Of a DNA stretch of 18,390 bases, positions 10,645 to 16,259 are shown piece after piece (the first letter of the stretch is position 1; every line of letters starts with the position of its first letter). The notes beneath the pieces are model-generated. The model was not told the DNA's origin and did no database searches. It saw only the letters and a program-made list of their open reading frames with translations. The position numbers were made by a program, and so were the translations under genes. The DNA comes from a virus, in the UHGV virus genome UHGV-1669119. One strand, written 5' to 3'.

Positions 10645-11283
10645 ATGTCACAGCCCGTATTAACTAATTACCTTAAAACTCAAATCATCAATAACGCACT
10701 TGAGAAAGCGGGTATCCCCAAACGTAAATCAGCACTACGAGCTGCTCGTGTTGAATGGGCCGAACGTGTTCGGCTTGCAGCTATCGGGGGCGTAGAGAAA
10801 GAAGCTGAAATATTAAAAAATATAAAAAAAATAGAAACACTGGTATCAAAATTCCCCGAAGCATTAAAAACCGCCAATAACATTATCAGGGAAGAGTGTT
10901 ACATGTGTCTGAATCTGGCAGGTTCTCGGGTTACCGTCTATTTCAACGGTAACTACCGAGGATATGAATCAGGGTCACCAGACCATATTCACAAAATCGC
11001 GCCGGGGGAATTTACCCTTCTGGCAAATGACCCTCTAGTTACAGAGTTTTACGGGTTTGATACACTTTATGAGCAGATACAGAGCGATGAGTCAGACATT
11101 CGACAGAATGTCAGCGCTGCACTCAGTAAAGTGCGCACAGTTAAGCGCCTGCTGGAAGAGTGGCCTGAAGCTAAAGAACTTCTGCCAGCCGATGCACCAT
11201 CTGCTCCGCTTCCGCCAGCTATACGACGCGAAACTCTCAACGAAATGATCGGCCTCCCTTCTGACGAAGGGGTAGATGCTTAA
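10645..11283 (+). CDS. Hypothetical protein (212 aa) in a low-GC island
   Basis: Track ORF 10615..11283; ATG 10645 has AGGGAA 6 nt upstream. AT-rich codon usage relative to the flanking replication genes. No recognisable motif. Confidence 0.5.
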   Translation: MSQPVLTNYLKTQIINNALEKAGIPKRKSALRAARVEWAERVRLAAIGGVEKEAEILKNIKKIETLVSKFPEALKTANNIIREECYMCLNLAGSRVTVYFNGNYRGYESGSPDHIHKIAPGEFTLLANDPLVTEFYGFDTLYEQIQSDESDIRQNVSAALSKVRTVKRLLEEWPEAKELLPADAPSAPLPPAIRRETLNEMIGLPSDEGVDA

Positions 11284-13954: not shown

Positions 13955-14176
13955 ATGTCATTTAAATATCGGGACAGTCCGCTTTATTACCGGGCTGCGA
14001 GGGAGGCCTTGCGCCTTGAGCAGTCCGGCGAATATGACCGGGCAGCGAAGGTCTGGGCCAAGGCTAACCGCCAGTCACGTAACGAACTGAATCAGGACTG
14101 GAGCGAACGCCGGTCTGATTTTTGTCTGATGCAGAACATGCGCGAAAAGCGTAAGGCGGTGAGCGATGACTTGTGA
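13955..14176 (+). CDS. ANR-family-like small regulator (73 aa)
   Basis: Track ORF 13829..14176; ATG 13955 with GGAG 8 nt upstream. MSFKYRDSPLYYRAAREALRLEQSGEYDRAAKVWAKANRQSRNELNQDWSERRSDFC fits the ANR pattern as I recall it (Y..AA..A..E..G.Y..A..W..A ... W ... C). Confidence 0.5.
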   Translation: MSFKYRDSPLYYRAAREALRLEQSGEYDRAAKVWAKANRQSRNELNQDWSERRSDFCLMQNMREKRKAVSDDL

Positions 14177-14648
14177 GCAGACCATTCTTGACATGTGCTG
14201 CGGCTCTCGTATGTTTTGGTTCGACAAGGAGGACAAGCGCGCCGTGTTCAGTGATATCCGCGCCGAGCAGCATGAGCTTTGCGACGGTCGCCAGTTGGTT
14301 ATAAGTCCGGACCTTATAGCTGATTTCCGCGCCCTTCCCTTTGCCGATAACACTTTCCCTGTCGTCGTTTTCGATCCGCCGCACCTCGAGCGCGTCGGCG
14401 ATAACGCATGGATGAGGAAAAAGTACGGGCGGCTCAACAAAGAAACATGGCGCGATGATCTTCGCGACGGCTTCGCCGAAGCATTCAGGGTATTGCGGCC
14501 CCACGGTGTACTCATATTCAAATGGAACGAAACGCAGATCCCGGTAAGCAATATCTTGGCGCTGACCGACGAGAAGCCGGCCATATGGCAACGAACCGGA
14601 AAAGCCGACAAAACCCACTGGGTTATTTTCGTCAAAGGTGTGGAATGA
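14166..14648 (+). CDS. Small SAM-dependent DNA methyltransferase (N6-adenine / N4-cytosine class, DPPH motif)
   Basis: Motif I-like LDMCCGS and motif IV VVVFDPPH; 160 aa; start overlaps the ANR-like stop (ATGACTTGTGA) and stop overlaps the VRR-NUC start. Confidence 0.6.
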   Translation: MTCEQTILDMCCGSRMFWFDKEDKRAVFSDIRAEQHELCDGRQLVISPDLIADFRALPFADNTFPVVVFDPPHLERVGDNAWMRKKYGRLNKETWRDDLRDGFAEAFRVLRPHGVLIFKWNETQIPVSNILALTDEKPAIWQRTGKADKTHWVIFVKGVE

Positions 14649-14941
14649 TGGCCTACGAACGTGAAAGCCTTATCGAAAAGCACCTCGTCGCCGAAGTGAA
14701 AAAGGCTGGCGGGGTCGCCTTTAAGTTCGTGTCACCCGGTCGCCGCTCGGTACCGGATCGCATTGTCCTGCTACCCGGCGGTCGCATCGTCTTTGTCGAA
14801 TGCAAAGCGCCAAGCAAACCACCACGGCCTGACCAGTTACGCGAGCACGAACGGCTGCGCGCGTTGGGCTTTACCGTGGTGGTATTAGATAGCAAAAATC
14901 TGGAGGGGATATTGTGCGGGGAGCCTATTACAACGAAATAG
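14645..14941 (+). CDS. VRR-NUC domain nuclease
   Basis: Track ORF 14522..14941; probable start ATG 14645 (MMAYERESLIEKHLVAEVKKAGG...). PD-(D/E)XK core PDRIVLL...IVFVECKAP typical of VRR-NUC. Confidence 0.65.
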   Translation: MMAYERESLIEKHLVAEVKKAGGVAFKFVSPGRRSVPDRIVLLPGGRIVFVECKAPSKPPRPDQLREHERLRALGFTVVVLDSKNLEGILCGEPITTK

Positions 14942-15942
14942 ACCCTAACGCAGCACAATGGCTGCGTAACCTTATTGCTGCAGGTCATATCGCCCCGGGT
15001 GAAGTTGATGAAAGGAGTATCGAAGATGTCGCACCAGACGACTTGCGCGGATTCACACAGTGCCATTTCTTCGCCGGGATCGGCGTCTGGTCTTATGCTC
15101 TGCGTCTGGCCGGATGGCCGGATAACAAACCGGTCTGGACAGGAAGTTGCCCGTGCCAGCCTTTCAGCTCGGCTGGTAAAGGCGCTGGGTTTGATGACGA
15201 GCGGCACCTATGGCCAGCACTATTCCACCTCATCAGCGAGCGACGCCCTAAGCTGGTATTTGGCGAACAGGTTGCGGGAGTCAATGCCTGGTTCGATCTT
15301 GTACAAACTGACGTGGAAGCAGTGGACTACGCCTTTGGGCTTGTCCCGTTTCCGGCTGCGGGCGTCGGTGCCCCGCATATCCGAGATAGAGCGTATTGGG
15401 TGGCCGACGCCAGCGGCGAGCGATCACAGCGGTGGCGAAAGCGCCTCAATAGCATTGAGGAAGATGTCTGGAGATCGTCGACCGTCCGGCAACACGCTAC
15501 ACAGCTCCCTGCGGAATTTTGCTCACCTAGCGGGGTGGTACACCCCAACCTGCAACACAAACCCACAGCCGGAGACAAAACGCGGTCTAGAAACCTTAGC
15601 GGGACTATCCAGATTAGCGGGATGGCCGACAGTGACGACGATCGACAACAACCAAGTTCGTGCCGAGGGCGCAGCGGCCAATCATACCGAACGGGGAACG
15701 ACCCTCGGCGGCGCTGCGAGAATCTGCGGCCCAATACGATTAACGGCTGCTGGGATGGTGCTGACTGGCTCCTCTGCCGGGATGGTCGCTGGCGGCCAGT
15801 TGAATCCGGCACATGCCCGTTGGCTAATGGGATTACCTCCAGAGTGGGACGACTGCGCGCCTACGGCAACGCGATAGTCGCACCAGCTGCCGCAACATTC
15901 ATCCGCTCGTTTATGGAATGCGCAGGATACGACCTTATTTAA
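14914..15942 (+). pseudogene. DNA cytosine-5 methyltransferase whose central segment (about 15396-15860) lies in a different reading frame from its N- and C-terminal motifs
   Basis: Frame 1 (GTG 14914, GGAGG upstream) carries motif I FFAGIG, motif IV PCQPFS, motif VI-like GEQV and motif [11 protein letters not shown], then after about 15860 motif X YGNAIVAP. Motif IX ([16 protein letters not shown]) and the repeated GWPTP-type motifs are in frame 2 (track ORF 14975..15877). Both frames are stop-free, so a 342-aa polypeptide is still encoded. Confidence 0.55.
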
Positions 15943-16259
15943 TGCCACTCACATCTGGCATGATACCGTCCAGAAGGTAATTGCTTATATACAACGGAGC
16001 CGCCCATGGCATAAGTATAAGCATGAAGTTTTGTCCAGAAGTCCCCATAAACTAGTATTGGGGCTAAAAATTTTGGATCGCTAACCATAGATGTAGCAGG
16101 AAGCTCGAAACCTTTAGAAAGAATGTTTACCAGTGAAGGGTAATTTTCAAAATCAGTGCTATTCCCGCCCACCTCTAAAGCATCCAGTTCAAAGTCGAGC
16201 ACTCCACCATTTTTGTAATACTCCGGAACAGTTAACCCTGATGTTAACAAAGTAGCCAT
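15939..16259 (-). CDS. Hypothetical protein (106 aa) in a low-GC island, antisense to the flanking genes
   Basis: ATG 16257-16259 with AGGAGG 8 nt upstream; island 15943-16290 is visibly AT-rich (roughly 40% GC by eye) against GC-richer neighbours; stop overlaps the C5-MTase stop. Confidence 0.5.
   Translation of the reverse strand: MATLLTSGLTVPEYYKNGGVLDFELDALEVGGNSTDFENYPSLVNILSKGFELPATSMVSDPKFLAPILVYGDFWTKLHAYTYAMGGSVVYKQLPSGRYHARCEWH

Follow-up and report, generated by a model that had tools for sequence, protein, structure and literature searches.

A C5-cytosine methyltransferase locus on the 18,390-nucleotide (nt) virus genome UHGV-1669119, the stretch of DNA analysed here at its full length and called the window, consists of two overlapping genes on the same strand rather than one damaged gene, and both genes are under selection. 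The longer gene, A, carries the catalytic motifs of the methyltransferase. The shorter gene, B, is contained entirely within A, in the +1 frame, and is unannotated. We place a probability of roughly 0.7 on the reading that this nested pair encodes a two-polypeptide C5-methyltransferase like M.EcoHK31I, with A resembling its alpha chain and B its beta chain. A first-pass annotation of the window had described the same DNA as a single methyltransferase whose target-recognition segment falls in a different frame from both catalytic ends, and had offered assembly indels, recent inactivation, phase variation, or a recoded middle as possible reasons.

Direct reading of the locus agrees with that annotation on where the motifs lie: the catalytic motifs and motif X read in frame 1, and the W-x-T-P repeats and an element resembling motif IX read in frame 2 (Table 1). 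RefSeq holds the frame 1 product as an intact "DNA cytosine methyltransferase" (WP_001213772.1) and calls A only. Gene A scores 48.1 bits against Pfam PF00145 (cutoff 22), with a match that spans profile positions 66-168 only, and it matches phrog_363 with E=3e-90. As a PF00145 enzyme, A thus passes the gathering score and has motifs I, IV, VI, VIII, and X all present. Motif VI reads EQV, which had been flagged as noncanonical. The variant is present, but it is no local defect, as the G-E-Q of this motif is invariant in the family alignment and EQV is found family-wide. As for the second frame, frame 2 (+1) is free of stops over 300 codons (14975-15877), and frame 3 contains dozens of stops.

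The layout is conserved far beyond the window. A megablast search of 5,426 complete Escherichia coli genomes with a 1401-nt stretch as the query found it 100% identical in 11 independently assembled complete genomes and at least 99% identical in 18. When the frame 2 open reading frame (ORF) was searched against phage genomes by tblastn, 233 records matched at 43-49% identity over nearly the full length, including Burkholderia phage BcepC6B, Salmonella phage epsilon15, and phages of Klebsiella, Pseudomonas, and Rhodobacter. In epsilon15, the B match lies in the +1 frame of an annotated 390-amino-acid (aa) "cytosine methylase", and here too each frame is open; the A/+1 layout of the window recurs in two metagenomic phage contigs that differ widely in G+C. 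For a broader survey, 160 loci were fetched with a profile of the frame 2 protein from IMG/VR and GTDB genomes, with hosts among the Enterobacteriaceae, Yersinia, Pseudomonas, Burkholderia, Comamonas, Brucella, Sphingomonas, and others, and counts are given over 162 loci. Removal of near-duplicates left 98 representatives with G+C of 52-71%. The frame of B is that of A plus one in every locus (162/162), motif X, GNA[IV], is in frame A in every locus (162/162), and frame A is open from motif IV to past motif IX in 161 of the 162. Upstream of the PCQ of motif IV, B is open for at least 119 nt in 160/162 loci. A second survey, made against selection bias, picked loci by the A N-terminal domain alone; B with its motif-IX-like element was found in 75 of these 77 loci, and frame B was open ahead of PCQ in all 77. 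Across the 98 representatives, the mean number of stops per gene is 0 in A, 2.6 in B (at its two ends only), and 16 in the third frame. Between the start of the motif-IX-like element and motif X there are 68 nt in 103 of the loci and 116 nt in another 55. The 116-nt class has a 48-nt insertion, which reads "RLGRVEPGVARVASSN" in frame A of epsilon15 (L001, 2300-2597). The single locus in which frame A is interrupted between motifs IV and IX (L124, 1376-2568) could be a real pseudogene or the result of a sequencing error. Family loci also occur in metagenome-assembled genomes labelled as a Woesearchaeota archaeon (L104), Peribacteria (L133), and Lentisphaeraceae (L137), and these three are probably binning contaminants.

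Were only one sequence known, a frame change inside a conserved domain would by default be viewed as an artefact or a dead gene, whether through assembly indels, a recent pseudogene, or a phase-variable gene in its switched-off state. The conservation described above makes each of these readings close to impossible. Assembly indels are contradicted by the 100% identity in 11 complete genomes and by a +1 offset that holds in 162/162 distant loci, with the same layout in 75/77 loci of the second survey. Recent inactivation is at odds with the deep conservation and with purifying selection in both frames. Phase variation fares no better: the sequence has no repeat tract, the 11 genomes are identical, and the frame offset is constant across the 162 loci. 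The two switch points that had been called slippage-prone, at 15393-15402 and at a (GC)3 run at 15855-15860, are neither homopolymers nor long repeats, and the latter is made of the frame A Leu-Arg-Ala codons CTG CGC GCC.

Evidence that both frames are under selection comes from the pattern of codon diversity. Codons of A were numbered from YYNE, and 4-fold diversity was taken at the third positions of conserved 4-fold-degenerate codons. Over A codons 1-80, diversity at position 3 is 0.45-0.58 versus 0.1-0.2 at positions 1 and 2, and in the W-x-T-P region it is the third position of B that is most variable. In the two intervening blocks, diversity is depressed at all three codon positions. The 4-fold diversity of A is 0.60 over codons 1-80, 0.27 over codons 81-158 (Mann-Whitney test versus A1-80, p=2e-4), 0.22 over codons 272-313 (p=5e-7), and 0.64 after motif X. 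Within the low-diversity blocks, many sites show one and the same codon in hosts whose G+C differs widely, such as CTT for Leu (90/90), GCC for Ala (85/85), GGG for Gly (89/89), and CCG for Pro (97/97). The 4-fold sites of B are free in the middle of the gene (0.5-0.73) and frozen over B codons 273-298. The second dual-coding block is the only stretch that keeps 85-87% nucleotide identity to Burkholderia phages by megablast, and coding in both frames accounts for this identity.

A test of openness, in which synonymous codons were permuted within each gene of the 98 representatives, bears on whether the unconserved parts of each frame are read. Frame A has no stop across the B-only middle in 98/98 representatives, where 12.6 would be expected to be open. 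Over A codons 34-80, frame B is free of stops in 96/98, against an expectation of 61. For the frame A of the window itself, the probability of staying open across the middle is about 0.015. The excess openness suggests that ribosomes read A through its freely varying middle and read B from far upstream of its conserved part. The first-pass annotation had noted the double openness and judged it unlikely by chance; the openness is real and the judgement is borne out by the permutations, although the length given for it, about 150 codons, was too short. The middle of A is rich in Gly, Ala, Arg, Ser, Asp, and Glu, a composition that fits a flexible linker, and a linker is most likely what this segment of A is.

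Gene B also has a start signal of its own, written in atypical synonymous codons of A. An ATG is present at B codon 33 (window position 15026) in 88 of the 98 representatives, where it is formed from the A codons for Asp-Val, GAT GTN. At -13 to -9 from this ATG, the representatives carry (A/C)GGAG, which is formed from A Arg-Ser codons. The codons that A uses at these sites are skewed relative to the rest of its A-only regions. Asp33 of A is encoded by GAT in 90/97 cases at the B start versus 35% elsewhere; at the Shine-Dalgarno sequence of B, Arg29 is AGG or CGG in 73/98 versus 9% elsewhere, and Ser30 is AGY in 75/89 versus 27% elsewhere. In public data, the majority of gene-called copies of B start exactly at this Met.

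A recoded middle, the last of the explanations offered earlier, would have A and B joined into one chain by a pair of programmed ribosomal frameshifts: the ribosome would slip +1 once past motif VIII and -1 ahead of motif X. Such a chain would run through motifs I-VIII from A, the recognition region and motif IX from B, and motif X from A, which is the canonical order, and database proteins that join the A N-terminus to B do exist. The details of the locus nevertheless make this a very improbable reading. A -1 slippery heptamer between motif IX and the B stop is found in only 5/98 loci and is thus not conserved, and the first junction has neither a stop nor a conserved shift-prone codon. Frameshifting needs neither an A frame that stays open through the middle (98/98 versus 12.6 expected) nor a B frame that is open, with a Shine-Dalgarno sequence and an ATG, about 370 nt upstream of the first proposed switch point, and B is under selection in the first dual-coding block, upstream of the supposed +1 site. 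In the 68-nt class, moreover, "PPEWDDCA" of B and "SRVGRLRAY" of A, the conserved lead-in to GNA, share the same nucleotides, so no single chain holds both. The database fusions point the same way. A chimeric query (A N-terminus, B middle, and A C-terminus) was used to seek a conserved in-frame fused lineage and returned 59 proteins that join the catalytic half of A to B. No two of them change frame at the same point, 13 of the 59 have no motif VIII, and no conserved single-chain fused lineage was found among them. They look like sporadic +1 indels or sequencing errors, and they stay open only because both frames are open. These fusions are among entries P0121-P0230 (P0145, P0162, and P0192, for example), and one is a RefSeq MULTISPECIES Pseudomonas protein. 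It had also been suggested that deleting one T at the first switch point and one GC at the second restores an intact canonical methyltransferase. Pfam, NCBIfam, and PDB searches with this "repaired" fusion matched the catalytic half alone, which gives no support for a canonical single-chain enzyme.

The B protein itself belongs to a large set of relatives. Searched with its profile, a set of 1.84 billion representative proteins yielded 19,243 relatives at E<=1e-3, of which 7,884 reach E<=1e-30, and B falls in phrog_1008 and phrog_31772, which are labelled "DNA methyltransferase". Across the family, B is 249-379 aa long and is built, from N to C terminus, of a variable tail, a conserved helix and beta-hairpin ("...RL....GSTLYKLTWK.W.TPSGR..SRLRAS.RRTS"), W-x-T-P modules, and the motif-IX-like element. 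The first 45-50 residues are unconstrained, the helix and beta-hairpin are confidently predicted by AlphaFold2 (AF2) from B alone, and the number of W-x-T-P modules varies from 1 to 6 across the representatives, with a mode of 3. Some members have fewer modules, as in P0216 compared with epsilon15 (L001), where frame A reads "GLADTS...GLANSS"; the loss is apparently an in-frame deletion between repeats. In the motif-IX-like element, Q, L, P, H, W, P, and W are invariant over 41 B sequences. The invariant "L-x-P-x-H-x-x-W-L-M-G-x-P-x-x-W" of B fits the classical motif IX pattern (compare "LTPRECARLMGF" and "RRLTPRECARLMGF" in Dcm), a match at the level of the pattern, and this pattern is present in B only and not in A.

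Known two-polypeptide enzymes provide the closest parallels. M.EcoHK31I was described by Lee, Kam, and Shaw in 1995, with a beta chain reportedly about 176 aa long; B differs from that chain in being longer (283 aa) and modular. M.EcoHK31I, from E. coli HK31 and specific for YGGCCR, is a C5-methyltransferase of two polypeptides in which the coding region of beta is nested in the alpha gene but out of frame with it; motifs I-VIII and X belong to alpha and motif IX to beta, and both chains are required (PMC2836561, PMC3404938). The first 42 residues of its beta chain are dispensable in vitro, and internal Met codons in the beta frame act as starts (PMC2836561, PMC3404938). The locus resembles this enzyme in architecture: motifs I-VIII and X are in one ORF here too, the second ORF is wholly nested in another frame with its own start signal, and the dispensable N-terminus of beta has a parallel in the unconstrained N-terminus of B. 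In contrast, M.EcoHK31I is a member of a Type II restriction-modification system, with its recognition domain assigned to alpha (PMC2836561, PMC3404938), and gene A here is an orphan in a prophage replication module. M.AquI is another C5-methyltransferase of two subunits, split in the variable region and encoded by consecutive subunit genes, the large subunit carrying motifs I-VIII and the small one motifs IX-X (PMC3404938). It shares with the pair proposed here from sequence the property of being a natural two-polypeptide C5 enzyme; it differs in that motif X here is kept on the chain of motifs I-VIII and the second gene lies entirely within the first, in the other frame. With the canonical single-chain PF00145 enzymes M.HhaI, M.HaeIII, and E. 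coli Dcm, the locus shares its large-domain fold and motifs I, IV (PCQ), VI, VIII, and X. Unlike in those enzymes, the putative recognition region and the motif-IX-like element are in another frame and probably another chain, and motif VI is EQV throughout the family. The frameshifted genes prfB, dnaX, and phage tail chaperone G/GT similarly have one stretch of DNA read in two frames, but here no conserved slippery site is present, both frames are open far past any junction, and the second frame has its own ribosome-binding site.

Several results weigh against B as the missing part of a methyltransferase. The frame 2 product has no match in Pfam or NCBIfam, a PDB profile search with B gave nothing relevant, and hhalign of the B alignment with E. 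coli Dcm returned a nonsignificant probability of 0.1; with these negatives, the motif IX assignment derives from a short pattern match. The AF2 model of B alone has a predicted local distance difference test (pLDDT) score of 60, too weak to define a fold for B, and most of B is of low confidence whether modelled alone or fused. The comparison with M.EcoHK31I adds a further point, as the constrained variable region with its W-x-T-P modules is here in B and the middle of A is unconstrained. With the recognition domain of M.EcoHK31I in alpha, the division of labour would therefore differ. Structure prediction also supplies evidence in the other direction. In an AF2 model of a natural A-B chimera, the catalytic domain has a pLDDT of about 90 and the B part is below 45 except for the motif-IX-like helix, which reaches 84 and is the sole part of B placed confidently against the catalytic domain; the chimera, like the model of B alone, is too weak to establish the fold of B. 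A Foldseek search with the AF2 model matched M.HhaI and M.HaeIII, although only the catalytic domain (the M.HhaI-like large domain) was reidentified.

These results can be read in another way, in which A alone is a complete methyltransferase and B is an unrelated overprinted protein, such as a DNA-binding or antidefence factor, whose motif-IX-like pattern is coincidental or vestigial. No profile method ties B to methyltransferase domains, B by itself folds poorly in AF2, and A has a conserved C-terminal block under selection, "ADWL.CRDGKWRPVEPG", that could act as a minimal recognition element. However, from motif VIII to its last 70 or so residues, where canonical C5 enzymes keep the recognition domain and motif IX, A has no conserved segment. 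The invariant element of B fits the motif IX pattern and, in the DNA, comes shortly before motif X, AF2 docks the motif-IX-like helix on the catalytic domain, and M.EcoHK31I shows that exactly such a split works. We therefore regard an A that acts alone beside an unrelated B as unlikely and consider it probable that B is the subunit that gives the enzyme its target recognition and motif IX. We infer that B is translated, that A and B associate, and that both are needed for methylation.

In the two-subunit enzyme that we propose, A would be translated end to end to give a catalytic core (motifs I-VIII), a long unconserved linker, and, at the C terminus, a conserved segment that holds motif X. 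Translation of B would begin at its own ribosome-binding site (AGGAG, 8 nt, ATG), written in the synonymous positions of A, and its product would have a dispensable-looking N-terminal tail, the helix-hairpin, a variable number of W-x-T-P modules, and the motif-IX-like helix. In the predicted heterodimer, target recognition and motif IX, both missing from A, would come from B. The enzyme would be an orphan methylase of the prophage replication module, and its role is probably to protect phage DNA from restriction.

Table 1. Coordinates in the window of the two overlapping genes, their motifs, and the segments distinguished by selection.
Feature	Position	Strand	Description
Gene A (alpha-like), C5-cytosine methyltransferase ORF	14914-15942	+	342 aa, GTG start; motifs I, IV, VI, VIII, and X in one frame
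Gene B (beta-like, unannotated)	15026-15877	+	283 aa; wholly inside gene A, +1 frame
Shine-Dalgarno AGGAG of gene B	15013-15017	+	8 nt before the ATG (15026); made of the A Arg-Ser codons AGG AGT
Motif I, FFAGIG	15067-15084	+	Frame 1
Motif IV, PCQPFS	15151-15168	+	Frame 1
Motif VI, FGEQV	15259-15273	+	Frame 1
Motif VIII, APHIRDRAY	15370-15396	+	Frame 1
W-x-T-P repeat, GWPTP	15398-15412	+	Frame 2
W-x-T-P repeat, GWYTP	15533-15547	+	Frame 2
W-x-T-P repeat, GWPTV	15620-15634	+	Frame 2
Motif-IX-like element of B	15797-15850	+	Frame 2
Motif X, YGNAIV	15862-15879	+	Frame 1 (A); 68 nt past the start of the motif-IX-like element of B
A-only segment	14914-15159	+	B open from 14975, no constraint on B at the amino acid level
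Dual-coding block 1	15160-15405	+	Motifs IV-VIII of A over B from "LSAR"
B-only segment	15406-15738	+	W-x-T-P modules; A stop-free, unconserved (most likely a linker)
Dual-coding block 2	15739-15864	+	A up to "RVGRLRAY" over B
A-only tail	15865-15942	+	A the only frame under selection

The surroundings of the pair are those of a prophage replication module, in the order DUF2800, DUF2815, Nmad5, DNA polymerase, S-adenosylmethionine (SAM)-methyltransferase, VRR-NUC, gene A, SNF2, and integrase, and no restriction nuclease partner is annotated within the window. The first 28 nt of gene A (14914-14941) overlap the end of the VRR-NUC gene that precedes it (14648-14941), and a downstream hypothetical gene on the minus strand (15939-16259) overlaps the A stop by 4 nt. 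Two more genes of the module, at 10645-11283 and 14166-14648, code for an "Nmad5 family putative nucleotide modification protein" and a small SAM-dependent methyltransferase of class I, and the phage may carry several DNA-modification functions.

The wider implications concern annotation, overlapping genes, and phage biology. In RefSeq and in the majority of phage records, only one member of the pair is called, and sporadic frameshifted A-B fusions have been annotated as intact methyltransferases. A nested gene of 283 codons, found in phages of alpha-, beta-, and gammaproteobacteria and with dual selection that can be measured, is a natural model of long dual coding. The locus appears to share the kind of organization known from M.EcoHK31I and, judged by its distribution, would be one of a very large family of such members; a search of the available literature found no account of this phage methyltransferase family. 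More tentatively, and with slightly less than even confidence, we suggest that M.EcoHK31I is no isolated case and that the family is a very large and ancient one of phages and prophages, with a nested overlap of about 850 nt of which about 370 nt are under dual purifying selection. In such a family, B would be modular (1-6 W-x-T-P units) by recombination, and A would tolerate the expansion and contraction of B modules because the overlapping segment of A is only a linker. Standard annotation would miss the nested pair because only A is called. If this is true, these pairs would rank with the longest deeply conserved gene overlaps so far known from bacteria and phages, and they would provide phages with a compact means of changing methylation specificity. 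The heterodimer design of M.EcoHK31I, treated as unusual in earlier work (PMC2836561, PMC3404938), may be a common phage solution, and the modular B may set the methylation specificity that shields phages from restriction.

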